The notes beneath the pieces were generated by a model. The model did no database searches. It was not told where the DNA came from and saw only the letters and a program-made list of their open reading frames with translations. DNA of 64,000 nucleotides from Bacteroidota bacterium (GTDB lineage Bacteria > Bacteroidota > JABWAT01): the NCBI GenBank assembly GCA_020161835.1, contig JAIUNL010000015.1, positions 707-64,706 of the forward strand, written 5' to 3'. Numbering within the stretch: position 1 is the stretch's first letter; each line of letters opens with the position of its first letter. The position numbers were made by a program, and so were the translations under genes. Positions 7,001 through 19,581 of the stretch are shown one piece after another.

Positions 7001-10000
7001 CTATAACTCAACCTCACCACTGATAAGAAAATGCTGAAGAAGGTTGTGAATTTTTATATTCACCTTAAAAAGTGGAATAACACTTCCTTCCTTTTTTTCA
7101 AAATAGGCTTTAGCCTTTTCTTTATCTACAGACTCCTTTAAATCATCAAAACGCCCGAATTGATTGATATTCAGTTCATTTATACCCGTATTCATCATGG
7201 CTCTCAGTTTGGTTTCATCCAGACCAAGAAGTTCTGAAATATGCCGGATCTGATCGTTTTTTGCTTTGGATTGATAATCTGCAATATAATCACGGAAGGT
7301 TTTATCGCTTGCAATTGAAGCATCCCCGCTTTCAACATCATGAAGGAATATGTTGGCAAATTTCTGCTCGTCCCGGGTAAGAAACGCAAACGATTTGTGC
7401 AGATCATTTAAGGTCTGTTCCTTTTGGTCCCTGTCAATATCTTTCTGTTCCAGCATTTTAAGGTACTTTTCAAAACGGGAGTTCATATATTCTGCATTAA
7501 TAATCCCGGTATCGATCTCGGTTAAATAACCATCAATTTCAAATGGAACTTCTTCAGATCCACCTTCGCCACCACCACCACTATTTAACTCCTTATACCG
7601 AAGAGCCAGAATCAGAAACGAATTTTCATCAAAACTCATTTCGATGATTGATTTTGCTTTCCCTAAAACCGTCTCGAATTCATATTTTGACTCACTCCAT
7701 GTAAAGCCCTGTATTTTGGATGCTTCCAGATACGTGTTGAATTCTTTAAAAAGCCTTGCGAAATTGCCTCGTTCAGAAAGATCATCCGGCAATTTTTCAA
7801 AGTTTTGGATCCCGGCGTGTATGAATACCTGAAAAATTTCATCGAATACTGAATTCAGCTTTTTCAGGTTTTCATCCAAATGATCGACAAACAGTGCAAG
7901 TGGTTTGTCTCCCGAATACATTTTTACTGCCTGATTCACATACTGTTCTACTGTGTGTGGTTTCCGGTAATACCGGATGGTACCGAAAGGTTTATCTGGC
8001 CCAAACAGGCGGTTAGTTCGTGAAAAGGCCTGAATAACGTGTTCAAACTTAAGAACCTTGTCCATGTAAAGGGTATTGATCCATTTGGAATCAAAACCGG
8101 TCAGCATTTGATCGACCACAATTAAAAGATCAATCTGTTTTTCCCGATTTTTTTCTATCCGGGTGTAGGGCTCCTTGTGGGCAAGCCGTGCGGCTATATC
8201 TTTTTTCAAATTCCCATGACTTGAAAGTGCAAAATCCATTCCAAAGGTTTGATTGTAGTCTCCGATAATTTCAACCAGACCGTCTTCTTTAAATTTTACA
8301 TTCCCGTGATTATCAATATTCGGATCGAAAAGTGCAGTTATTTTCAAGTCCGTTTTTTCTTTTTTCAATAAACGGTAATAGTCAACAGCCTCAGAAATAC
8401 TGCTGGTGGCAAAAAGCGCATGAAACTTCCCGTTCCGGCTAAGAGTCAGCCATTTATCTGCAATATCACTTACGACAGCCTGCTGATGCTCGATGCGCTC
8501 ATACTGTGAAGTTGGAAGGTAATCCTCAATTCCTTTCACATATTTCCCGTTTGTGTCAAGGAAACCGGCCATTTTCACCTTTGACGCATCCATAAACTTA
8601 TAATAAACTTTGCTCTTTTTCGGGTCTTTGATGGCTTCCTTTTCACTGGTTGCCTTTGCCTCTGCGATGGCAACAGCTTTTCTCAGGTCGTGGTCTTTAT
8701 AGGTCATAACCTTATACGGATCGAAACCCAGAACATTTTTGTCCCGGATGCCATCGGCAATACTGTATCGATGTAACTCATCGCCAAAAACAGTTGACGT
8801 GGTGTTCAGTTTTTTTTGGTTCTCATCCTGAATGGGAGTGCCGGTAAAACCAAAGAACAAGGCCTCAGAAAATGTTTTCTTGATCGATGTCAGCATTTTA
8901 CCAAAGGTTGACCGGTGTGCTTCATCCACAATAAAGACAATCCGTTTTGACTTCATAAGCTTAATATCGTGGGAATTGAGTCCCCCATCTTCATCTTTGA
9001 TATTGCTCATTTTTTGGATGGAAGTAACGATAAGCGTATCGGCAGGTTTGGTACTTTTGAGTTTGGAAACTAAAACGCCGGTATTTTCGGTGGCCTGAAC
9101 CTCTTCGTTTTCGTCTGCAAAATTGCTGTATTCCTTAAGTGATTGGGTTCCCAGTTCTATCCGGTCCATCAAAAAAAGAACTTTGTCTGCATCCTTCGAG
9201 TTTGCTATAAGTTGTGCCGATTTAAAACTGGTCATGGTTTTGCCGGAACCGGTGGTATGCCAGATGTATCCACCCCGCTGGGAATGTGCTTTCCAGTCGG
9301 TTTTTGAAACTTTATCCGAAATAGCGTTGGCAGCATAATACTGGTAACTGCGCATGACCTTCAGAATGCCGTCAGAATCATCGGCAACCGTGTAGAACCC
9401 GATTAGTTGATGTGCCATCGGAATGGAGAGGAGTGTTGAAGCAATGAGTGCCCACTGATTGATGGGTTCATTGTTGAAATCGGCCCAATGGAAATAATAA
9501 TCTTTATTGAATTTGCCATCGGGACCGGGATTGGCAAAATAGACCGTTTCGCCGGGTTCCATAGCCACAAAAATCTGAATGAGAGAAAACAACCCTGTAA
9601 AAATGCCCTCACCGGTATATTTTTCAATTTGGTTACAGGCTTGACTGACCGGAATTCCACTCCGTTTCAGTTCGATGTGGATGACCGGCATACCGTTGAT
9701 CAGCAGCAACAGATCACCCCGGCGGTCATTCAGGATTTTTGATTTGCTTGTAAAATGGGGTTGATGCACAATCTGATACCGGCTTTGCCCTGCGGCAATC
9801 TCACGGCGGTCGTAGATTTTCAGACTGACTTCTTTACCAAAATGATCAGGATCGGCAGGATTGTCACGGACGATTGAAACGGTTTTGCCATTGATAAACC
9901 CGTTCAGCTTTAATGGCGTTCTTAGCCGGGTAATCTGTTCAAGAATCTGGGCCATTTCACCATTGGTTAGGGGTGTTTCATTCAGGCGGTCGATCCCACG

Positions 10001-10141
10001 GTTGTTTTCGAAAAGAATAGAAGCCCAGTTTTGCAGTAACTCACCCTCAGTGGGGTGTTTCAGAATATCGTTTTCCCACCCTTTATTCCTCAGAATTTCG
10101 ATAAGTGCTTCTTCAAAACCGGATTCGCTGGCAAATGACAT
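7001..10141 (-). CDS. hsdR: Type I restriction enzyme, R subunit (HsdR).
   Basis: 1046 aa. HsdR-type N-terminus (SESGFEEALIEILRNKGWE). Walker A (HTTGSGKTMTSF). DEAH box (FIVDEAHRS). It is the last gene of the hsdM-hsdS-hsdR run. Confidence 0.9.
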   Translation of the reverse strand: MSFASESGFEEALIEILRNKGWENDILKHPTEGELLQNWASILFENNRGIDRLNETPLTNGEMAQILEQITRLRTPLKLNGFINGKTVSIVRDNPADPDHFGKEVSLKIYDRREIAAGQSRYQIVHQPHFTSKSKILNDRRGDLLLLINGMPVIHIELKRSGIPVSQACNQIEKYTGEGIFTGLFSLIQIFVAMEPGETVYFANPGPDGKFNKDYYFHWADFNNEPINQWALIASTLLSIPMAHQLIGFYTVADDSDGILKVMRSYQYYAANAISDKVSKTDWKAHSQRGGYIWHTTGSGKTMTSFKSAQLIANSKDADKVLFLMDRIELGTQSLKEYSNFADENEEVQATENTGVLVSKLKSTKPADTLIVTSIQKMSNIKDEDGGLNSHDIKLMKSKRIVFIVDEAHRSTFGKMLTSIKKTFSEALFFGFTGTPIQDENQKKLNTTSTVFGDELHRYSIADGIRDKNVLGFDPYKVMTYKDHDLRKAVAIAEAKATSEKEAIKDPKKSKVYYKFMDASKVKMAGFLDTNGKYVKGIEDYLPTSQYERIEHQQAVVSDIADKWLTLSRNGKFHALFATSSISEAVDYYRLLKKEKTDLKITALFDPNIDNHGNVKFKEDGLVEIIGDYNQTFGMDFALSSHGNLKKDIAARLAHKEPYTRIEKNREKQIDLLIVVDQMLTGFDSKWINTLYMDKVLKFEHVIQAFSRTNRLFGPDKPFGTIRYYRKPHTVEQYVNQAVKMYSGDKPLALFVDHLDENLKKLNSVFDEIFQVFIHAGIQNFEKLPDDLSERGNFARLFKEFNTYLEASKIQGFTWSESKYEFETVLGKAKSIIEMSFDENSFLILALRYKELNSGGGGEGGSEEVPFEIDGYLTEIDTGIINAEYMNSRFEKYLKMLEQKDIDRDQKEQTLNDLHKSFAFLTRDEQKFANIFLHDVESGDASIASDKTFRDYIADYQSKAKNDQIRHISELLGLDETKLRAMMNTGINELNINQFGRFDDLKESVDKEKAKAYFEKKEGSVIPLFKVNIKIHNLLQHFLISGEVEL

Positions 10142-10164
10142 TGTGATTTAAGCCTTTTTATAAT

Positions 10165-11361
10165 TCATACAAACATCTTTTCCAGACAGGCCTTTTTGAT
10201 GGCCTTTAGTTTTTCTAGTTCTTGCAAATGAAGTGTAATAATGGTTTCGTGATTTTGAAAATATCCTGCTATTTTTTCTTGCTCTTCTTTCTTTGGAAGT
10301 TTAAAAGGGGTAGCTTTTGCTTGCTCAATTGTATAATGTGAGATTGTTCCAATATGAGTAATGCTATTTACATAATTTCTGAAAGTTGAAGTTGAAAAAA
10401 AAGTATATAAAAAAGAACCGTTAATTTCTTCGGTATTTTTTAACCATAGCAAATCTCCATCTTTGAAGTATAAAGGCTCATTAGTCTTAACCAAAAAAGG
10501 AATCCCAATTGAACCACCACCAGTAACCAGAAGGTCATTTTTTTGAACGGAACCAGACTTTTTCAATAACTCTTCATATAAATTCTGAGAGATATATGCT
10601 TTTTTATTATCTGAGCCATAATATGCAGAAATAACATCACTCGTCCTAAAAAATGGTACTCCAGAATCTGTCCATTCATTCTTATGAACACGAGAAGCTG
10701 ATGAAATTTCCATTACCTCCCCCAACTTCCGTTCTTCCCACTTGCCCGTAAACTCTTTAAAACGAATTTCAGGCACATCTGAACCCGATTTGGGAAACAT
10801 TTTTTCGAGCATGGCCGTATTTAAAGTGGTCAGCTTGTCGTATTTGCGCTGATGCAGAGTGATGAGAATGTCAAGCTGGTTGAAATATTCTCCAATTTTT
10901 TCTTGTTCAAAAATATTTAAAGGCGCTAAAAGCTCAAGCTTCATCATTGTTTCTGCATTGAGTTTTGCACGCCCCCCACCTACCAAAAAAGGTTCAATTT
11001 GGGTTTGAGAAATAACATATTTAAGATATTTATTTTTAGCGATATCCTGTTTTGCCTGAAGAACATGAGCATGGTTATTTACCCATATTTTTCCATTTAC
11101 GAACTGTACAGGATAATCTTTCAAATCGTTTGCACCGTCTTCGGCAACGAGAATAAATTCTCCATCATGGGTAAAACCTTCAACATAATCCTGAATACCA
11201 TTTGCACCATAGTAAGGTGTGTCACCCGGTATCCTTTCAGAAGCAGTTATAGGGACTCTCAAATTGTCATATCTATCAGCAATATCTTTTAATTCAAACT
11301 TATCCCAATCCTCATTAAATCCTTTAAACCGAATATCCGGTTTAGTTTTTCCCTCAGTCAT
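10165..11361 (-). CDS. hsdS: Type I restriction-modification specificity subunit (HsdS), two target-recognition domains.
   Basis: 398 aa with duplicated TRD architecture and conserved central and C-terminal spacer repeats. It overlaps the hsdM stop by 8 bp. Confidence 0.85.
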   Translation of the reverse strand: MTEGKTKPDIRFKGFNEDWDKFELKDIADRYDNLRVPITASERIPGDTPYYGANGIQDYVEGFTHDGEFILVAEDGANDLKDYPVQFVNGKIWVNNHAHVLQAKQDIAKNKYLKYVISQTQIEPFLVGGGRAKLNAETMMKLELLAPLNIFEQEKIGEYFNQLDILITLHQRKYDKLTTLNTAMLEKMFPKSGSDVPEIRFKEFTGKWEERKLGEVMEISSASRVHKNEWTDSGVPFFRTSDVISAYYGSDNKKAYISQNLYEELLKKSGSVQKNDLLVTGGGSIGIPFLVKTNEPLYFKDGDLLWLKNTEEINGSFLYTFFSTSTFRNYVNSITHIGTISHYTIEQAKATPFKLPKKEEQEKIAGYFQNHETIITLHLQELEKLKAIKKACLEKMFV

Positions 11362-13939
11362 TGTTGTTCCCTTTTAACAGCAACTGAAATTCAGCAAGTC
11401 CTTTCAGGTCGTGTTCATTGCCCGTAAGGTCATCAATCAGGGAAGCTAACGTTTTTTCCGTTTCGTGAATCTGCTCCATCACGTCTTTGTAAGTGGTGGC
11501 ATATTTCAAAGCAAGGGTTTGTACTTTGGCAGCGAGTTCAGTTATGACTGTTTCAGGCAGTTTATGCAGGGAACTCAGGAGCGGGGTTATCCATTTTAAT
11601 TCCAGTAAGTGGTGCACCTGGTCATCGGTAAGCGCTTCAATGGTTTCTTTGGTGAGGTTATGCAGTTTCGTCGCTTCGGTTCTGAGCCGGGCTTTCAAAT
11701 CTTTCTCCTCGGAAATCAGTTCTGCGAGTTTCAGAATTTTTGCTTCCAGAGTTTCTTCTGCAAACACTTCATTCTTCTTCAGGCTGGCCTGTATCTGTTT
11801 TGCTTCTTTGGTAATGGCAGAGGATACAAAGCTGTCACCGGCTTCGTTGGTTAGTTCGCTTTCTTTTTCTTCTTCCGTCAGGGTTTCCATTATTTCATCG
11901 TAACCGGCACTAATTTCTGCCAGCCGGTTTTCCATTGTTTTCAGATTCTGGTATTCTGTGTTGAGGTAAGTTTTTTGCACGAGTTCAAAGGGAAGCACAC
12001 GCCCGGTCCATCCGTCCTGTACTTCCTGCGAAGTGTTTCCTACGGTCTTCTTCAACACCAGGTTCGGGTCTACTTTTCGGGTGGTTTCAAATCCTTCGGT
12101 TTGTATGATTTCCAGATCACCGGCTATTTTTATCCATTCATCATCAAGAAGCTGAAATGCCCCGTATTTATCAATCAATGAAAAGGATTTGAGCCGGTTA
12201 AAAATTTCATTGCTCAGAATGGTTTCTTCTTTTGATAGAGTCACTGACAGCATATTTTTAAGCAAGTCATTCCGTAGTGTGCCGTCAAAACCAGCGAAGG
12301 CGGTTTTAAATTTGCCTGAAAAGGTTTGTACACTTTTATGTTCCCTGATGGCCGCCTTTACATCAGTTACTTTCAAACCGACATACGGTGAACCGTTATT
12401 CAGAAACAATGCCTCACGCAAACCCGGCAGCGCATTCCAGTAGAGCGACAACCCGTCAATTTCCTTTTTTGGTATTCCGCCAAACATCGAGGCATAAAGA
12501 TCCCAGCTTTCGGCCTTTTCAGACGAATCGACATACCGGGGAATGTTCAGGTTATAGTCGTTTGACCGTATTTCTTCCCGGCTTACCACTTTCGAAAAGT
12601 TGGGAACTGGGTAACGGCCAACCACAGTATCGGCAATCCGTTTAATGTCAGAAGCCCTGAGCTGGTTGTTTTTTCCAACTTTCGTGAATCCTTTCGAGGC
12701 ATCAACAATCAGCACATCGGTGTTTGTCCGTTTTTGCTTCAGCACCATGATAATGGTTGGGATTCCTGTACCAAAGAAAATATTGCCCGGAAGCCCGATG
12801 ATAGTATCAATGTGATTACATTCAATCAGGTTTTTACGGATGGCTCCTTCTTCACCCCCACGGAACAACACCCCGTGTGGCAGCACGATGGTCATAATGC
12901 CATCGGGTTTAACGTGGTAGAGATCGTGAAGCAGAAAAGCATAATCGGCTTTGGTTTTAGGTGCCAGACCAAAACGGGCATAACGGGGGTCGGTTTCTTT
13001 ATTGGCAGAATCCCATTTCTGTGAATAAGGCGGATTTGAAACCACGGCATCAACATAAAGCGGATTGTAGGTATTAACCGGGTCGTTTTCTTCGAAATAG
13101 GGCCAGTCATCCTCAAGTGTATCGGCGTTGCGGGTGAAAATATTATCAGCCAGAATTCCACGCATCACCAGGTTCATCCGGGTAAGGTTGTAGGTATTCT
13201 CCTTCAATTCCTGAGCATAGTACATGATACTGTTATCGTTGGCGAAGTGCCTGGCTACACTTCGGCCAATATTGATCAACAAGGATCCGGACCCACTTGT
13301 CGGATCATAAATTTTGATTTCTGTTCTGTCTTTTAAATGATTGGCCACAATTTCTGACATCAGCACAGAAACTTCGTGGGGGGTGTAAAACTCACCGGCT
13401 TTTTTACCGGCATTTGCTGCAAACATTCCGATGAGGTATTCATAGATAAATCCCAATACATCATAATCCTGTTGCCCATCCATCGGAATATCTTTAATGA
13501 GATGGATCAGCTGACTGATGGCCTTTGTCTGGGCACCTGAACTATCACCCAGTTTACTCAATCCGGTTTCGAGGGTGTTAAATATTTTCTCAAACAGTTT
13601 TTTATGTTTCGGGTAGATTGAACGGTTGAAAGCAGAAAGGGCATCACGGACGTTAGACACATCAAAGTCATTCCCCATGCTAATCCAGGTCGAAAACAAA
13701 TCCTTATGGGCAATAAAAAAACCAATATTGCTTTTGAAATATTCCGCATCACCATCAGAAAGAGTGATTAAATCGTTTTCTGTAAAATCTTCCCTTTTGG
13801 CAAATTTGATTTCCTGCTCAGACAGGTACTTATAGAAGATAAACCCCAGTATGTAATCTTTGTATTCATTTGCTTCAATTTTCGACCGCATCTGGTTGGC
13901 AGATTCCCAGATTTTTGCAGCCAATTGCTGTTTGTTCAT
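11354..13939 (-). CDS. hsdM: Type I restriction-modification N6-adenine DNA methyltransferase (HsdM), long form with a C-terminal coiled-coil extension.
   Basis: HsdM N-terminal domain. SAM-binding region. NPPY catalytic motif (VVSNPPYSQKWD). About 300 extra C-terminal residues rich in E/K/L heptad-like sequence. Confidence 0.9.
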   Translation of the reverse strand: MNKQQLAAKIWESANQMRSKIEANEYKDYILGFIFYKYLSEQEIKFAKREDFTENDLITLSDGDAEYFKSNIGFFIAHKDLFSTWISMGNDFDVSNVRDALSAFNRSIYPKHKKLFEKIFNTLETGLSKLGDSSGAQTKAISQLIHLIKDIPMDGQQDYDVLGFIYEYLIGMFAANAGKKAGEFYTPHEVSVLMSEIVANHLKDRTEIKIYDPTSGSGSLLINIGRSVARHFANDNSIMYYAQELKENTYNLTRMNLVMRGILADNIFTRNADTLEDDWPYFEENDPVNTYNPLYVDAVVSNPPYSQKWDSANKETDPRYARFGLAPKTKADYAFLLHDLYHVKPDGIMTIVLPHGVLFRGGEEGAIRKNLIECNHIDTIIGLPGNIFFGTGIPTIIMVLKQKRTNTDVLIVDASKGFTKVGKNNQLRASDIKRIADTVVGRYPVPNFSKVVSREEIRSNDYNLNIPRYVDSSEKAESWDLYASMFGGIPKKEIDGLSLYWNALPGLREALFLNNGSPYVGLKVTDVKAAIREHKSVQTFSGKFKTAFAGFDGTLRNDLLKNMLSVTLSKEETILSNEIFNRLKSFSLIDKYGAFQLLDDEWIKIAGDLEIIQTEGFETTRKVDPNLVLKKTVGNTSQEVQDGWTGRVLPFELVQKTYLNTEYQNLKTMENRLAEISAGYDEIMETLTEEEKESELTNEAGDSFVSSAITKEAKQIQASLKKNEVFAEETLEAKILKLAELISEEKDLKARLRTEATKLHNLTKETIEALTDDQVHHLLELKWITPLLSSLHKLPETVITELAAKVQTLALKYATTYKDVMEQIHETEKTLASLIDDLTGNEHDLKGLAEFQLLLKGNNND

Positions 13940-14182: not shown

Positions 14183-14677
14183 ATGGAAAATATACTTTTC
14201 CTTTCCTACAATAAAGATTCTGACATGGGTCAGCATTCAGCACTAAGGCTTCAAACTATAGCCGGGCTTTACGGCTTTTCAGTTGTTTTACCTTTACGCC
14301 GTCCCAATTCAAGTGCAATTAACCAGGAAACAAAAACCCGGATTGATTCTGCTGACATGGTCGCAATCTTTGCTCTTGAAGGGGTTTCTAAAGGCGTGAA
14401 TGAAGAAATTGTTTATGCCTCACAGAAAAATAAGCCGGTTATTGTTTTGTTCCAAAAAGGGATGCCCCAGAGTGGCTTCCCCAAAAATGACAATATCAGA
14501 GCCGTAGAGGTAGATTTTAATTCGATTGACAAAGCCTCATATGAAGTTGCAGAATTTCTGAAAGGTCAGTTTTCGGCCCGTACAAAAAAAGGTAAAGAAA
14601 CTGCCGGTTCCGGTTCCGCTCTCATTCTTTTGGGGTTGGGACTTTTAGCTGCATGGGCATTGACTAAAGATAAATGA
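14183..14677 (+). CDS. TIR-like (DUF1863/ThsB-like fold) protein with a C-terminal transmembrane helix.
   Basis: The ORF track begins at 14123, but the ATG at 14183 is preceded by GAGGTGA, and a -7 TAtaTTTG box lies just upstream. The N-terminus ENILFLSYNKDSD resembles TIR beta-A (VFISYSHKD / FFSFHYQD). The C-terminus SALILLGLGLLAAWAL is hydrophobic. Confidence 0.4.
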   Translation: MENILFLSYNKDSDMGQHSALRLQTIAGLYGFSVVLPLRRPNSSAINQETKTRIDSADMVAIFALEGVSKGVNEEIVYASQKNKPVIVLFQKGMPQSGFPKNDNIRAVEVDFNSIDKASYEVAEFLKGQFSARTKKGKETAGSGSALILLGLGLLAAWALTKDK

Positions 14678-15204
14678 GGAAACCAACAGCTATCATTGAT
14701 ACTTCAGTTCTGCTTTGTCTTTTCCGTCTTAATATTCTTGATAAACTGAATCTTTTATTCTCTGAAATCCGAGTTCCAAGAAAAGTTGAATCAGAATTTC
14801 TTTTCCGTACTGATCCGACAGAAGCAAGTGCCAGATTCAAGTTTATTACCAGCTTTTATGAAAGTCACCGGAGATGGTTTATTCAATGTAATGAATACGA
14901 TTCTGCAACGGTTGAAATTTATGTCAAGATTGAAAAACTTGATCCGGGTGAATCTGAAGTTTTTGCACAAAACCAGTATCTTGATAATACCCATACACTT
15001 TTGATTGATGAAAAAAAAGCCCGGAAAGTAGCCTTTAAAAAACAAGCAACCGTTCATGGCTTTTTATTTATTCTGGCGTCACTTGATATTAAATACGGTA
15101 TCTGTGATTATCAAAAAGGCATCACCATACTTCAAAAAGAAGGGTTAGGCCATTTTCCCGAAACCCTTGTTAAATCGGTTTACCAGTACGTAAAGGATAA
15201 CTGA
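14674..15204 (+). CDS. DUF3368-family PIN-like nuclease (toxin-like).
   Basis: The N-terminus AIIDTSVLLCLFRLNILDKLNLLFSEIRVPRKVESEF matches the DUF3368 PIN signature (ViDtS.li.L.kig.ldlL..ly.ei.iP..V..E). The ATGA start overlaps the upstream stop. Confidence 0.55.
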   Translation: MRKPTAIIDTSVLLCLFRLNILDKLNLLFSEIRVPRKVESEFLFRTDPTEASARFKFITSFYESHRRWFIQCNEYDSATVEIYVKIEKLDPGESEVFAQNQYLDNTHTLLIDEKKARKVAFKKQATVHGFLFILASLDIKYGICDYQKGITILQKEGLGHFPETLVKSVYQYVKDN

Positions 15205-15464
15205 TTTCTTCCGACCTAATAAATTATCTACAAAATCAGTTGGAATCAACCATTTGGTGATGATAGGTTATCCAAAACCAAATAACTTTCTTAACTTTTT
15301 TCGGTTTATAGTATATTTCGTATATTTGAATTGGTGTTTGAAAAAGCACCTACAAACCTGCCATCAACAATGCCGGAAAACCCAACTTTACCTATGTGAA
15401 GCGGTGCCGGTTCGGGCGGGTTTTTTTTTGCTTTTTTTTGTAGCCTTTTCTTACCTTTGCTATT

Positions 15465-15565
15465 GCTCTTCCTACCTGAACGGGGGCTTTGTGTCGGCGT
15501 GTCTGAGGTAGCAGACTCCATTGCCGTAATCTGAAATAACAAATGCCCCTGAGCCTCATTTTTTT
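15465..15565 (+). ncRNA. Candidate structured small RNA, repeat family A, copy 1. It has its own promoter and terminator.
   Basis: Upstream -33 TTTG, a 20-nt spacer, then -7 TAccTTTG at 15452-15459. Hairpin GTCTG-AGGTAG-CAGAC at 15501-15516. Its loop is complementary to the upstream CTACCT at 15472-15477. An outer stem GGGGGCTTTG / CAAATGCCCC encloses both. A T8 run follows. Confidence 0.5.
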
Positions 15566-15566
15566 T

Positions 15567-15640
15567 GTGTGGGGGAAACGCTCAGGGCGATGAGTGCGGG
15601 GGTTCCACTGGAACGTATTGACACGCCCCCACCGCTTTTT
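15567..15640 (+). ncRNA. Structured repeat family B, copy 1. Terminator- or attenuator-like.
   Basis: GTGGGGG ... CCCCCAC stem followed by CGCTTTTT. A second internal G-run (GCGGGGG) offers alternative pairing with the same C-run. A near-identical copy lies at 16815-16887. Confidence 0.4.
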
Positions 15641-15751
15641 CTGATATACATTGTTTTGGCTACAAGTTCCTTCTTCTCCGGTTCACAAGTCCTCAACTTA
15701 AGACATGTTTGTCTTTGCTTTTTTTCGTGCTGGTTTCTTACCTTTGCCGTT

Positions 15752-15865
15752 GCTCTTCCCAACTGAACGGGGGCTTTGCGTCGGCGTGTCTGAGTTGGCA
15801 GACTCCAGTGCCGTGGACTTAAACAGCAAATGCCCCTGAGCAAATTATTCGGTATTTTAATTTTT
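15752..15865 (+). ncRNA. Candidate structured small RNA, repeat family A, copy 2.
   Basis: Same promoter boxes (TTTG, a 21-nt spacer, then TAccTTTG at 15739-15746). Same hairpin and outer stem. Upstream CCAACT pairs with hairpin loop AGTTGG. Relative to copy 1 these are compensatory substitutions. Confidence 0.5.
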
Positions 15866-15912
15866 CCCCTCCTTTTATTCAATTTAAAGAATGAACCGCT
15901 TTATCCAGGTAT

Positions 15913-16281
15913 ATGATGGCACCCCAAACACAAATAACGGTAACGCCAGGATGGACCTTCCCGGTTTCAATCATTTCTTACACGAGTGAAGGAAATTCTT
16001 TTTTTTATTGTCCGGAACTGAATTTGATTGGTTATGGGGCGTCTGAACAGGAGGCTCAAAAGTCCTTTCAAATTTCAAAAAGGGAATTCTTTAGGTTTTT
16101 AAAGACGAATCCTTCCTTTTTTCTTGAATTAAAAAAACTGGGTTGGACGGGGTCTGAGAATTCGAAAAAAATGTGCCCGCCATCATGGGCATTTCTTTTA
16201 GAAAATGATGAGATCATCAGGGAAGTGGTGGCAATCAATAATTTCTCAAAGAAACAAGTCAAAATGAGAATTACAACGTGA
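15913..16281 (+). CDS. HicB-like (UPF0150) antitoxin-fold protein.
   Basis: FPVSIISYTSEGNSFFYCPELNLIGYGASEQEAQKSF matches the HicB N-terminal pattern (EDGGY.v.vPdLPGC.s.GdT.EEA..n..EAI). Confidence 0.4.
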   Translation: MMAPQTQITVTPGWTFPVSIISYTSEGNSFFYCPELNLIGYGASEQEAQKSFQISKREFFRFLKTNPSFFLELKKLGWTGSENSKKMCPPSWAFLLENDEIIREVVAINNFSKKQVKMRITT

Positions 16282-16284
16282 TAT

Positions 16285-16458
16285 GGCTTTAAAATCACAA
16301 CAGTCCGAACTTAATTTGTCTGAAAAACGACTTGTAGGATTTCAAAGCCGAAAGACCTGGAAAAAACAGCATCACAGGAAATTACGTCGAATGATGAAAC
16401 AAAATCAGGAGTTTGTTCCTCACTACAACCGTTATTTTCATGGTTTAATACTCTAACA
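16285..16458 (+). CDS. Possible small basic protein (57 aa), directly downstream of the HicB-like gene.
   Basis: ATG 4 bp after the upstream stop. Translation: MALKSQQSELNLSEKRLVGFQSRKTWKKQHHRKLRRMMKQNQEFVPHYNRYFHGLIL. Too short for the ORF track. No motif recognised. Confidence 0.2.
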
Positions 16459-16814
16459 ACAGATATTATATCTTACAGCATAAAATTCCTGGTTTACCCA
16501 GTTTTGAATTTGGTTTGTCTTGGCTTTTAAATTATAAATTGAAAAGTCAGATACCAGATTGGGTAAATTTTGGGTTATACTTCTGGATACATTTTCATCT
16601 TTATGCATCAAATATTCCTTCCGTCCCGGCATGGATACGCCGGATAGCGGTAAAGGGAAGTTGGGAAAGTCTGGGGCTTAAACCCCAGACAACCAACTGA
16701 AGCTGACTCAAAAAGTATAAAAACTGGAACCCATTTTTCAGGTCAGGGCTTTGTCTTTTGGCGGCCTAAGATTGACAGTTTTCATTTTTTCTTCGGTTCT
16801 GATATTTTTGTTTT

Positions 16815-16887
16815 GTGTGGGGGAAACGCTCTGGGCGTTGCGTGCAGGGTTTCCAATGGAAGGCATTGACACGCCCCCACCGTTTTT
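16815..16887 (+). ncRNA. Structured repeat family B, copy 2, about 80 nt upstream of ORF 16969..17280.
   Basis: Near-identical to 15567-15640, with the same G-run/C-run stem and T-run. Confidence 0.4.
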
Positions 16888-16968
16888 AATTCTTGAGTCC
16901 GGGTTACAATTCAATTTTATTTATCCTAACCATTCAAAAAAGAAATTACAATTTTCTGCGTTCATTTT

Positions 16969-17280
16969 ATGGTAATCCAAAAAGCTACCTACTTTCATGA
17001 AGATATAATTCCAACTCTGATTCTGGAGACAGATCTGGGTGAAGTTGTTATTGATCCAACCAGCATTAAAATCGAACTGCTTGAACAGGATCTCATTTAC
17101 GTTGGGTACCCAGATCAACTTCCTGTTTTGACTTTTACCTGGGAAGACAAAAAAGGTAAGCAGGTGGTAAAGGTGCCAGGTTATACAAATGATGAACTGG
17201 TTTTAAAACTGGTAAGACAGTTTCTGAGTGATTGGGATCTTGACATTTTGAAAAACGGCCAGGTTATCTATCCTGTATAA
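16969..17280 (+). CDS. Hypothetical protein (103 aa).
   Basis: ORF preceded by a family B repeat. No motif. Confidence 0.3.
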   Translation: MVIQKATYFHEDIIPTLILETDLGEVVIDPTSIKIELLEQDLIYVGYPDQLPVLTFTWEDKKGKQVVKVPGYTNDELVLKLVRQFLSDWDLDILKNGQVIYPV

Positions 17281-18039
17281 AAACATGTCATTCAGGGAAG
17301 GCTCCCCGACTTCCACGCGAACCTCATTTTCATGAGTCCTACGGCTGGGAGATTCACCGTGTTTCTGAATGACACTTTTCTAAAATACGGTAGTTGGTTT
17401 ATTATTTCAACTGAGTTTAGAGCAACCGTTGTGTTGTTCAACCTTTTCTTTCCTGAGTGCACTTGCCATTATTATACCCGGCGTTTAATTTTGAATAAAA
17501 AGAAGGCTGAATGGCTTCCTGTTACCTGGTTGATAATGGGGACAACAGTGAAATCAGGATGCCTTTTTCTGTTTTTATCAGCTTTCAGGTAAAAGTCCCG
17601 AACTCATTTTTGGTTTATGATATGCAATAATTTCTGAAACCCATCATTAACATCAAAAAGGAAAAGTGACTTGTTGAAGGTTGTAAATTCAGACAAACAA
17701 TTGCCAGTTTAAGTTTTGATGCCTAATTTTATCCTGAAACGGGAAACTTTTCAATCTGCCCTGACCTTGGTACGACAGCCTGCATTGAAGAAAAGTGTCC
17801 CGTTTTGCTTTTTATTCAGTACCAGACATAGGCTCGACACATTCATTGCTGTTTGCAATGTCCGCTAAACTCATCCATCTTTAAATTCAGGAAAAGGGTT
17901 CTGTTTTTTAAAATCCTCCTTTGTAATCGAGAGTAGTAGAAAATCAGGTTCACCCTTTTCCGCCTATTTGCCAGGTGCCATTAACCATTCTTGCTTCATT
18001 TATCACCCAGGTTCATTAACTTGTCGATCTAATCACAAT

Positions 18040-18178: not shown

Positions 18179-18673
18179 TTGAACTACGAAATAGTCGAAT
18201 TACAGCCATTCAGTGGGAGTGAGGCAAAGATTTACTCCCTTATTCCAAAGGGAGAAGATGAAACCTTGTTCGAGAAGTTCGTGGTGGAGTACAAGGCCGG
18301 ATTTAAAAATGAAGTAAAAGATATAATCAAAACCATTTATCAGATTGGTCATACAACAGGAGCAAGAAGTTCGTTCTTTAAGCAACATGAAGGGAAGTAT
18401 GGTGACTTCGTTTGTGCCTTGTTTGATGTACCGGAAAAGAATTTGAGAGTGTATTGTATCCGGTTCGGAATGGTGGCTGTTATTCTCGGTGGTGGTGGAG
18501 AAAAAGCAGAGGGTGTCAGAGCATGGCAGGATGATGAAAAGTTATCAAAAGAAGCAAATCAAATGATTGACTATGCAAAGGATATTTTGAAGCGACTTGA
18601 TGACGGTGATTTGTATTGGTCAAAAGATAAAACAGAGTTAGAAGGAAATTTAAAAAATTACGATGATGAATAA
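18179..18673 (+). CDS. HigB-like toxin of the Gp49/DUF891 family (RelE/ParE superfamily).
   Basis: NLRVYCIRFGMVAVILGGGGEKAEG...I..A resembles the Gp49 motif (RV.Y.......VLLHGF.KK.QK.P..EI..A). It is followed, with an overlap, by an XRE-type HTH gene. Confidence 0.45.
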   Translation: MNYEIVELQPFSGSEAKIYSLIPKGEDETLFEKFVVEYKAGFKNEVKDIIKTIYQIGHTTGARSSFFKQHEGKYGDFVCALFDVPEKNLRVYCIRFGMVAVILGGGGEKAEGVRAWQDDEKLSKEANQMIDYAKDILKRLDDGDLYWSKDKTELEGNLKNYDDE

Positions 18674-19124
18674 GCCAACAAAAGCGAGAAAATATAATAG
18701 TTCAATACTCAATGAACTATTGGACGAAATTACACCATTGGAAATGGAACAAACAAAAGTGAAAATGCAACTTGCTGCTTCTATTGAAGATTATATGAAT
18801 GCAAAAGGTTGGAATAAGTCGCAGTTTGCTGAAAAGGTTGGGAAAAATCCGTCCGAAATTACAAAATGGTTTAGCGGCACACAAAATTTCACCATTGATG
18901 TGTTGACTGAAATTGCTTCTGCACTTGGGGTTGAGCTACCTGCCTTATTTGGCAAAAAGCAAGTCCAGATGATTTATCGAAAAGAAATTGTCGTTAAAGC
19001 TGCCGCCCCCCAACCAACTATTTTTATGACAACACCTATGTCACATGGCATAGATGTCTATGGGTATAATCTATTTGCAATTCAAGGGAACAAAACAGCA
19101 CTCACAAAAAATTACCAGGCATAA
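18663..19124 (+). CDS. HTH XRE-family antitoxin-like protein (HigA-like).
   Basis: HTH_XRE segment GWNKSQFAEKVGKNPSEITKWFSGTQNFTIDVLTEIASALGVEL. It overlaps the upstream toxin-like gene by 11 bp. Confidence 0.55.
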   Translation: MMNKPTKARKYNSSILNELLDEITPLEMEQTKVKMQLAASIEDYMNAKGWNKSQFAEKVGKNPSEITKWFSGTQNFTIDVLTEIASALGVELPALFGKKQVQMIYRKEIVVKAAAPQPTIFMTTPMSHGIDVYGYNLFAIQGNKTALTKNYQA

Positions 19125-19125
19125 A

Positions 19126-19581
19126 ATGGCTAAGATTGAGAATGCAGACGTCAACGTCGAAATAAAAATAAAAGCAATTGAACTATTAAAGGGTTCCTTA
19201 CAGTTACCTGCAGTCCCCAATACTACGGTTACAACATTTAATTTTAACATTAGTATTGAAAGTAGGGCGGATGCGCCAAACAAACTTGTCTTTGTAATTG
19301 TCAATGTTGATATAAAAAATGATGACTACTCACTTGTCCTTGGGGCACTTTCGGTGAGCTGCATTTTTGAAATTGTCAATTTTGATGAAGTAATTAAAAG
19401 TGATGGGAACGGGAACCTTGTTTTACCTCTGCGGTTGATTGAAACACTCAACAGCATTTCGATTTCAACAACCAGAGGGGTTATGTTTTCTACTTTCAAA
19501 GGAACCTTTTTACATGGAGCAATCCTTCCAATAATTGACCCTAAACAATTTCAACCCGATACCCCAAAAGTCGGAAAATAG
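19126..19581 (+). CDS. Hypothetical protein.
   Basis: ATG at 19126, 2 bp after the HigA-like stop. The ORF track gives 19054 as the start, but the overlap makes that unlikely. No motif. Confidence 0.3.
   Translation: MAKIENADVNVEIKIKAIELLKGSLQLPAVPNTTVTTFNFNISIESRADAPNKLVFVIVNVDIKNDDYSLVLGALSVSCIFEIVNFDEVIKSDGNGNLVLPLRLIETLNSISISTTRGVMFSTFKGTFLHGAILPIIDPKQFQPDTPKVGK

Follow-up and report, generated by a model that had tools for sequence, protein, structure and literature searches.

Two related direct repeats lie close together in a 64,000-nt stretch of contig JAIUNL010000015.1 (the window), which belongs to a metagenome-assembled genome (MAG) labelled Bacteroidetes bacterium. The question raised by this locus was whether the repeats are genes for a structured RNA and, if they are, what such an RNA could do. 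A preliminary description of the window had proposed two promoter-bearing RNA genes whose compensatory changes support a pseudoknot, and everything that it described for the two repeats was present in the sequence. The repeated unit is 135 bp long and occurs as A1 (15420-15554) and A2 (15707-15841), which are 84% identical; no third copy was detected elsewhere in the 64-kb window. As read from the sequence, each of A1 and A2 is a gene in its own right for an RNA of ~95 nt with a compact fold, consisting of four helices, P0-P1-P2-P3, and a pseudoknot. We consider it very likely that they represent a real, transcribed family of structured RNAs that is antisense to genes for the PBECR2 domain. 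The family is previously undescribed, and no published description of it was found in the literature searched. The elements of the two copies are as follows.

15427-15459, + strand: A1 promoter of the Bacteroidota type, with a -33 box TTTG (15427-15430), a 21-nt spacer and a -7 box TAccTTTG (15452-15459)
15463-15556, + strand: A1 RNA, ~94 nt, placed by its fold, pair counts and covariance model R2 (see below)
15463-15468/15551-15556, + strand: A1 helix P0
15472-15477, + strand: 5' strand of the A1 pseudoknot, CTACCT
15482-15492/15539-15550, + strand: A1 helix P1
15495-15499/15522-15526, + strand: A1 helix P2
15501-15505/15512-15516, + strand: A1 helix P3
15506-15511, + strand: A1 P3 loop, AGGTAG, the 3' strand of the pseudoknot
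15560-15567, + strand: U8 run after the A1 RNA
15714-15746, + strand: A2 promoter, with a -33 box TTTG (15714-15717), a 21-nt spacer and a -7 box TAccTTTG (15739-15746)
15750-15843, + strand: A2 RNA, ~94 nt, with the architecture of A1, placed by its fold and model R2
15759-15764 and 15793-15798, + strand: A2 pseudoknot strands, CCAACU and AGUUGG

The closing helix P0 (GCUC/GAGC, 4-6 bp) encloses the whole fold. The outer stem of the preliminary description, GGGGGCTTTG / CAAATGCCCC, was found to extend to a P1 of 11 pairs with one bulged U and one G·U (GGGGGCUUUGY/RCAAAUGCCCCU). Inside it lie P2 (CGGCG/UGCCG) and the P3 hairpin (GUCUG/CAGAC; GTCTG-loop-CAGAC at 15501-15516 in A1), whose six-base loop pairs with a hexamer in the 5' tail and so forms the pseudoknot. 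The concerted change reported for this pairing was seen again, AGGTAG with CTACCT in A1 and AGTTGG with CCAACT in A2, and amounts to two compensatory pairs. The copies differ at 12 of 92 core positions, with all four bases involved. Six of the differences are pairwise compensatory: the loop-tail helix has two such pairs and the inner end of P1 a third (U-A to C-G). The remaining six fall on unpaired bases, and no pair is broken. In a simulation, 12 random substitutions left any 6-bp helix intact with at least two compensatory pairs in 19/20000 cases. The covariance model R2 matched A1 (93 bits, E 1.5e-22) and A2 (100.7 bits, E 1.3e-24) and nothing else in the window.

Homologues were not readily found at the nucleotide level. 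Exact-pattern scans of IMG/VR returned nothing or chance matches in GC-rich coding DNA, a hairpin-pattern scan of GTDB genomes gave no match, a metagenome pattern scan gave one chance match, and blastn of 15274-15870 against GenBank phages and PLSDB plasmids gave none. The contigs found through the neighbouring DUF3368 protein had exactly the sequence of the window and therefore added no variation. Since gene callers sometimes read through RNA genes, we searched protein space with a chimeric query made of concatenated stop-free six-frame translations of the elements. This search returned one protein, P0002, encoded on a 12.4-kb phage-like contig (L009/L011) with genes for a D5-type primase, a holin, an M15 peptidase, SLT, a transglutaminase and a GIY-YIG protein. 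The contig carries a third A copy on the minus strand of L009 (6521-6392), in which the promoter boxes are kept, the spacer differs and the loop-tail pair is that of A2; the three close copies together showed three compensatory pairs and no disruptions. This copy lies in frame within P0002, between the PBECR2 domain (PF18810, residues 43-139) and a C-terminal module that is the sole part shared by P0002 and P0003. On either side of the A region of L009 (6363-6376 and 6522-6534) stands TACTTT(T)CCCG(G)A, a direct repeat of 12-13 nt with imperfect copies, and the coding strand of both of its copies contains slippery-looking heptamers of the GGGAAA(A)G type.

A profile search among 1.84 billion representative proteins yielded 648 polyvalent-type proteins. 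The profile was meant for the 45-aa peptide encoded opposite the A units and was dominated by its PBECR2 part, so the proteins found were mostly PBECR2 homologues. DNA was fetched for P0039, P0119 and P0012, and for 18 further PBECR2 loci by way of a four-sequence protein alignment. The DNA of P0039, P0119 and P0012 showed the architecture of the A copies with different sequences, at a position coinciding with the end of the PBECR2 domain. In L012, for example, GGGCGAUUGAUC (codons G-R-L-I) pairs perfectly with GAUCAAUCGCCC (codons D-Q-S-P), CGGC/GCCG comes next and then a hairpin; the complement of its loop CCUCGC, GCGAGG, lies immediately outside P1. Model R1, for which the three A copies were the sole input, gave the following matches, with E-values that are rough owing to a short calibration.

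L020, minus (antisense) strand, at the PBECR2 domain end: E 9e-9
L022, antisense strand, at the domain end: E 2e-8
L019, antisense strand, at the domain end: E 9e-7
L012, antisense strand, at the domain end: E 3e-6
L014/L018, antisense strand, at the domain end: E 2e-4
L013, antisense strand, at the domain end: E 1e-3

Model R2, rebuilt from nine sequences, added L029, L025, L015, L021 and L026 (E 1e-7 to 8e-5, equally rough). The members come from MAGs labelled Ignavibacteriales, Ca. Brocadia (two, L019 and L022), Dependentiae, Nitrospirae (two), Ca. Magnetobacterium (the contig of L029) and Geobacter, and the remaining ones from viral or metagenomic contigs. Every member outside the window was located within a PBECR2 gene, at one position of one PBECR2 subfamily in all loci examined. 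Homologues of this subfamily in cultured phages were found in two Campylobacter phages only. The antisense RNA was absent from the one checked by a model scan (L033, Campylobacter phage CC12667_12684_ph15, PV052265.1, 3310-6600), which is a useful natural negative control, and no example of the RNA was found in cultured phages. In the Rfam 15 scan of the window only a tRNA-Ser exceeded its gathering threshold and no family matched the A units, the C4 antisense RNA, ToxI and the pistol, hatchet, twister and HDV-like ribozymes being among the families covered. Nothing credible was detected at E<=10 in 14500-18000 or 15440-15660, eight other family members had no match at E<=1, and no Rfam ribozyme or riboswitch model matched.

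The fold was evaluated on a 14-row alignment that was curated by hand, with rows checked against the genomic sequence, and that passed unchanged through realignment. Standard pairs were present in 93.4% of cells compared with 63.2 ± 1.6% in shuffles (0/500 reached the observed value), and slid controls gave 39-47% pairing. Both-sided change was observed in 29 of the 33 pairs, those of the pseudoknot included, so that compensatory substitutions beyond controls, the general criterion for a structured noncoding RNA (ncRNA), were found among the homologues. RNAalifold counted 18 of 26 pairs as compensated in a model-made alignment. The interpretation of the loop-tail pairing as a functional helix was likewise borne out: P0-P3 were found in 11 further members, with at least seven different pseudoknot sequence pairs. 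The pairs kept are CUACCU/AGGUAG, CCAACU/AGUUGG, CCGCCU/AGGCGG, CCUCGC/GCGAGG, CCAUCU/GGAUGG, CUGCCU/GGGCAG and CUGCCG/CGGCAG. Covariance models cannot represent pseudoknots, and the pairing was assessed separately, with free register for self and cross comparisons alike. It was complete (6/6) in 7 of 12 lineages versus 11% of cross-pairings (permutation test, 2/20000), reached 5/6 in L020, L029, L025 and L015, and was not seen in L013.

A feature that the preliminary description missed is that the reverse complement of each unit codes, by its translation, for the C-terminal strand of the PBECR2 domain and the linker that follows it. PBECR2 is a predicted RNase that phages inject, and it occurs in polyvalent proteins (Iyer et al. 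2017, PMC5512222); that work covers the protein only and does not mention an RNA element or an antisense transcript. The peptide of the A units, AQGHLLFQMTALESANSDTPTQSPRS, aligns with the native domain end of distant homologues and is not an insertion.

15420-15554, - strand: the reverse complement of A1 reads AQGHLLFQITAMESATSDTPTQSPRSGRKSNSKGKK..., a relic of the PBECR2 domain end and linker
15707-15841, - strand: the reverse complement of A2 reads AQGHLLFKSTALESANSDTPTQSPRSVGKSNGKGKK..., a relic of the PBECR2 domain end and linker
P0039, native domain end: SGRLIYKSTALEANLATSPDQSP
P0010, native domain end: KGELLYMMSTALDASAPASPKQS
P0119, native domain end: NGRLVFQTTAL...NQP

The domain-end motif in distant homologues is G-x-L-[LIV]-[YF]-x-x-T-A-L...Q-S-P. 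The A1 and A2 peptides alone matched the collinear domain ends of P0039, P0021, P0013 and P0019 (E 0.002-0.03), over the last strand and the linker only. P1 is the complement of GGN-NNN-YUG, which encodes G-x-L in the last strand of the domain, and of CAR-NNN-CCN, which encodes Q-x-P in the linker, and its middle codons covary (CGA/UCG, AGG/CCU). Since the strands of P1 complement the G-x-L and Q-x-P codons, the apparent protein motif is what one helix yields when both of its strands are translated. The junction UCCAGUGCCGUC, complementary to ACG GCA CUG GA (T-A-L-E/D), is conserved at synonymous sites across phyla. The peptide has drifted with the fold kept in L025 (GSKTLYVSLANAKA), L021 (KGRMLYDASARG) and L026 (SGWLRYSAPAFAD), and it has also diverged in L015. 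At L029 (514-610, minus strand) stop codons interrupt the PBECR2 frame immediately ahead of the RNA, with the RNA and a perfect promoter intact; perhaps the RNA has outlived its open reading frame (ORF) here, or the break is an error of assembly. Proteins encoded by the overlapped genes range from 277 to 2919 aa. Taken together, the loci show a family whose usual place is on the strand opposite a phage polyvalent or virion-associated protein gene, at the 3' boundary of its PBECR2 domain. By this comparison of sequences the RNA gene is overprinted, in antisense, on a protein gene, and A1 and A2 in the window are detached versions of it.

The promoters form a second line of evidence. TTTG and TAnnTTTG are the -33 and -7 consensus boxes of Bacteroidota promoters, as established for Bacteroides, and a promoter of this type fits the host because the source of the window is a Bacteroidetes MAG. 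The boxes are present at identical spacing in both copies, as had been described, and also in the copy of L009; the boxes are conserved across the three and the spacer sequence is variable. L031, a weak Bacteroidales match, carries TAAGTTTG, also of the Bacteroidota type. Among the 11 non-Bacteroidota members, seven have a sigma-70-like promoter upstream with at least 9/12 matches, a score reached in 2.5% of control windows. These promoters lie inside the ORFs, directly upstream of the RNA, and are directed antisense.

L029: TTGACA-17-TATAAT
L025: TTGACA-17-TACACT
L021: TTGACA-17-TACTAT
L026: TTGACT-17-GATAAT
L015: TTGACA-17-TAAATT
L014: TTGACT-17-TATTGT
L020: TTGACT-17-TATCTT

In the members examined in detail the host-type promoter ends 5-12 nt before P0. 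The earlier proposal of promoter-bearing RNA genes thus extends to homologues with predicted host-appropriate promoters directly upstream. The type of promoter tracks the host phylum while the fold stays constant, a pattern with no easy explanation other than a transcribed gene.

The strand on which the fold operates was judged from the wobble pairs. In the orientation antisense to the ORF the alignment contained 32 G·U and 4 A·C, and the opposite would be expected were the mRNA strand the one that folds; the folded strand is therefore the antisense one. Folding was favoured on the antisense strand in L012, L013 and L014 (-57.8 kcal/mol antisense versus -42.4 sense in L014) and slightly so in the three A-core folds. 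The wobble count bears directly on the alternative that the element is a sense-strand structure in the mRNA of the polyvalent protein, serving as a ribosome pausing point at the domain boundary, as a processing site or as an autoregulatory target of the PBECR2 RNase, with inert copies in the window. Such a structure would account for the constant placement at a domain boundary within an ORF; the Watson-Crick helices can all form on the sense strand too, and one pair of L013 is G·U only there. The wobble count and the folding energies of L014 speak for the other strand, however, as do the promoters, which point antisense, and the window copies, which lie outside any ORF, co-oriented with their own promoters. 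A reading of the sequence of L009 also showed no in-frame slippery site upstream. We regard a sense-strand structure as improbable.

Less probable than any other reading considered here is a feature of the DNA itself, such as a single strand that folds into a site for recombination or priming, or a quasi-palindrome that template-switch mutation keeps perfect. Template switching can give inverted repeats changes that look compensatory, DNA hairpins tolerate G·T wobbles, and the genes of polyvalent proteins are modular and shuffled, as P0002 and P0003 with their single common module illustrate. A crossing pairing of the pseudoknot type and conserved unpaired junction bases are nevertheless not expected of a DNA site, and promoters immediately upstream that change type with the host phylum are likewise at odds with it. 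The attC boxes RYYYAAC/GTTRRRY were absent on reading the sequence, and no recombinase gene was found nearby among the ORFs examined.

The surroundings of the A units contain further elements and genes.

7001-13939: type I restriction-modification (R-M) system (hsdR, hsdS, hsdM)
14183-15204: PADLOC candidate PDC-S70, a 164-aa ORF and a DUF3368 protein (PDC-S70 match placed at 14674-15204)
15250-15290, - strand: remnant of the 5' end of a GIY-YIG gene (KVIWFWITY versus KVTRFYPPY in L009)
15290-15432, + strand: U element, a small-RNA-like unit adjoining A1, with a -7 box TATATTTG (15321-15328), a 5' hairpin, a terminator-like stem and U9
15559-15639, + strand: B element B1, which starts right after the U-run of A1
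15913-16281, + strand: orf122, immediately downstream of A2
16807-16887, + strand: B element B2, with its own TATTTTTG box (16803-16810), preceding orf103 (16969-17280)
18179-19581: PADLOC candidate PDC-M64, three ORFs, one with HTH_3

The type I R-M system together with PDC-S70 and PDC-M64 marks the surroundings as a defence island. The preliminary description had placed the repeats in an island of small toxin-antitoxin (TA)-like genes; the island stands, and its character is corrected to defence rather than simply TA genes. About 150 bp upstream of A1 (U and ~40 nt) are 81% identical to L009 6834-6988 (minus strand), which lies between P0002 and the GIY-YIG gene. In L009, U is a ~135-nt insertion between genes that overlap in L010, with ATGAAA duplicated, and L010 represents the empty site. 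This identity, the GIY-YIG remnant and the empty site indicate that the U-A1 segment descends from an L009-like phage. U had fold z-scores of -3.0 and -3.7 and folds well only on the + strand of the window. Its 5' hairpin shows two compensatory pairs relative to L009 (GGUG/CACC versus GGGC/GCCC) and it contains a 32-nt invariant block; no Rfam match was found for U, and the pattern of the block gave no match in IMG/VR. The two B copies, a third repeat family, are 88% identical and have the form GUGGGGG...CCCCCAC followed by a U-run; a six-frame protein search found no homologues. For orf122 no homologue but itself was found among 5.8 billion protein clusters, and there was no Pfam or PADLOC match. 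By eye, its N-terminus resembles HicB-type antitoxins.

Phage ancestry of this kind, together with window peptides that match PBECR2 domain ends, leads to a rival reading in which A1 and A2 are gene debris: decaying PBECR2 fragments of a degraded prophage, in which a lysine-rich linker and the palindromic codon pairs G/P and L/Q happen to generate the promoter boxes and the helices. The reverse complement does encode a recognisable C-terminal motif of PBECR2, the reverse frame is still open in both copies (45 codons each), and the single-sequence folding z-scores of the A cores are modest (-1.5 to -2.1). Debris would not, on the other hand, be expected to show covariation of the fold in 14 sequences of several phyla alongside divergence of the overlapped peptide, nor the excess of G·U over A·C, nor an enrichment of host-type promoters upstream. 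Between A1 and A2 the changes are mostly non-synonymous in the reverse frame, and the synonymous sites in helices are invariant or compensated. The limits of both copies coincide exactly with the promoter on one side and P0 on the other. Searching the flanks with a domain-core profile revealed no PBECR2 core or remnant, so the window copies are clean promoter-plus-RNA units, and no intact ORF overlaps A1 or A2 on the reverse strand. We therefore consider debris very improbable.

What the RNA does is a question on which we are more cautious, and our favoured explanation, taken as a whole, is held at slightly less than an even chance. That the RNA is an antidote or regulator of the PBECR2 module is a serious possibility, though a somewhat doubtful one. 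The RNA would be made constitutively by the host RNA polymerase and would pair with the perfectly complementary, mirror-folded segment of the PBECR2 mRNA, leading to a block of translation or to cleavage, in the manner of the OOP RNA of lambda or of type I antitoxins that overlap the 3' end of their target. Antisense pairing is proposed as the default mechanism because the geometry sets it. The conservation of fold and junction nucleotides across phyla at the expense of the protein sequence suggests a possible protein partner, in addition to the mRNA or in its place; the most plausible candidate is the PBECR2 domain, which the RNA would bind in the manner of type III antitoxins. The window copies could work in trans, as orphan RNAs that give immunity to related phages entering the cell, and A2 may also be a promoter and leader for orf122. 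In a more specific form of the proposal, the RNA would be a fold-dependent partner of the PBECR2 RNase, either a single-unit antitoxin encoded antisense or an inhibitory substrate mimic, that keeps the nuclease inert until the polyvalent protein is delivered; A1 and A2 would then have been captured into defence islands as orphan RNA immunity genes that disarm the injected effector. This form we think quite unlikely.

A different view accepts the antisense RNA as real and denies it any relation to PBECR2. The RNA would be a host-defence decoy or inhibitor, a ribozyme, or a mobile promoter-plus-leader cassette, and its position an accident of overprinting. Overprinted genes cannot easily move, so that linkage alone proves little, and overprinting could have frozen the RNA beside PBECR2 by accident, with no functional tie behind their constant association. 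Any function of the window copies must do without PBECR2, orf122 begins 70 nt downstream of A2, A1 runs into B1, and the Campylobacter phage homologue lacks the RNA. Against this view stand the single position of the RNA in a single PBECR2 subfamily at every locus examined and the lack of any match to an Rfam ribozyme or riboswitch; RNA partners would also be natural for a domain with an RNase fold. A function unrelated to PBECR2 appears unlikely to us, though it carries appreciable weight.

The possible frozen accident is one of several points that weigh against the explanation favoured here, an antisense RNA that serves the PBECR2 module. The modest z-scores of the A cores belong with it, as does the open reverse frame, which fits a recent derivation from coding DNA and weakens the argument for selection in the host. 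The 14-row alignment was fitted to the structure by hand and is small and partly related, with about 10 of 14 rows from independent lineages. The promoters are predicted from consensus matches only; no good sigma-70 match was found in L019, L013 or L022, and a U-run or terminator right after P0 is clear in A1, L014 and L026 and not in the others. L013 (4550-4630, minus strand) keeps P1-P3 and has no convincing pseudoknot, P0 or sigma-70 promoter, and it may be a degenerate or variant form. Antisense pairing and protein binding are not separated by these data, and the effect on PBECR2 is a prediction.

Several known kinds of element were also considered for the A units and rejected. An integron attC site does not fit, since the ends are CTGAAC...CCCCTGAGC with no GTTRRRY and no integrase was found in the ORFs examined. 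The TR/VR pair of a diversity-generating retroelement was dismissed because the 12 differences are not adenine-specific and there was no reverse transcriptase among the ORFs examined. An in-frame insertion resembling a miniature inverted-repeat transposable element (MITE) or a Rickettsia palindromic element is contradicted by the homology of the A peptide to native distant PBECR2 sequence. A programmed frameshift stimulator is disfavoured by the strand test, which points to the antisense strand, and by the upstream GGGAAAG of L009, which does not lie in frame. Finally, single-strand promoters of the Frpo type were discarded, since the fold here is preceded by ordinary duplex promoters.

If the favoured explanation is true, the family would be a deeply conserved ncRNA gene overprinted on a protein gene, in which the RNA fold dictates the protein motif G-x-L...Q-x-P and the promoter is exchanged for one that fits the phylum of the host. 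It would then be the first candidate regulator or antidote for the poorly understood PBECR2 nucleases, whose toxicity and control are directly testable, and defence islands could hold RNA immunity genes invisible to protein-based annotation. Were the RNA a binding partner of the nuclease and its units captured by hosts as described above, toxin-antidote pairs of RNA and protein would gain a new class, and a host would be seen for the first time to counter a phage anti-host effector with an RNA. As a lesson of method, the family would show that seemingly conserved protein linker motifs can be shadows of antisense RNA structure.

The comparison with PBECR2 itself (PF18810, PMC5512222) is one of sequence: the reverse complement of the A element encodes the last strand of the domain and the linker, and the window copies no longer encode the domain. 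The defining trait of cis-antisense RNAs, an own promoter opposite the overlapped ORF, was found in L009 and 11 other loci and not for the window copies, which have no overlapping ORF. Among known systems, described here from general knowledge, the OOP RNA of lambda and the sar RNA of P22 are similar in being short structured RNAs with an own strong promoter, opposite the 3' part of a phage coding gene and with expected pairing to its mRNA. They differ in being simple stem-loops found in close relatives only, whereas the A family has four helices and a pseudoknot with junction bases kept across phyla, overlaps a domain boundary inside very large ORFs and has stand-alone copies in a host chromosome. 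Type I TA systems (TxpA/RatA, BsrG/SR4, Fst/RNAII) share with it a constitutive antisense RNA over the 3' end of a gene for a harmful protein. Their toxins are small membrane peptides with an own mRNA, whereas the target of the A family would be an RNase module in a multi-domain phage protein; the overlapped proteins, at 277 to 2919 aa, are not small toxic peptides.

The preliminary description had suggested small regulatory RNAs or type III-like antitoxin RNAs. The type III antitoxins ToxI, CptI and TenpI resemble the A family as pseudoknotted RNAs associated with an endoribonuclease, and by this analogy direct inhibition would be possible. RNAs of the ToxI type are tandem repeats of ~36 nt, upstream of and co-transcribed with a toxin of the ToxN/AbiQ family that processes them. 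The A units, in contrast, are single, lie 287 nt apart and have own promoters, and in the phage loci the nuclease is on the opposite strand and belongs to another fold. No tandem array of direct repeats of ~34-45 nt was detected (Tandem Repeats Finder found only a T-run), and the neighbouring ORFs had no Pfam or PADLOC match to an adjacent co-oriented gene of the ToxN/AbiQ/CptN family. The c4 RNA of P1 and P7 (Rfam C4) is similar as a structured phage immunity RNA in which small concerted base changes define heteroimmune variants, to be compared with the pseudoknots of A1 and A2. C4 acts in trans on ant mRNA through its loops, is processed by RNase P and is not overprinted on its target, whereas the A family is without an Rfam match. 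By analogy with these systems, the element would work most like a phage cis-antisense RNA or an RNA antitoxin.

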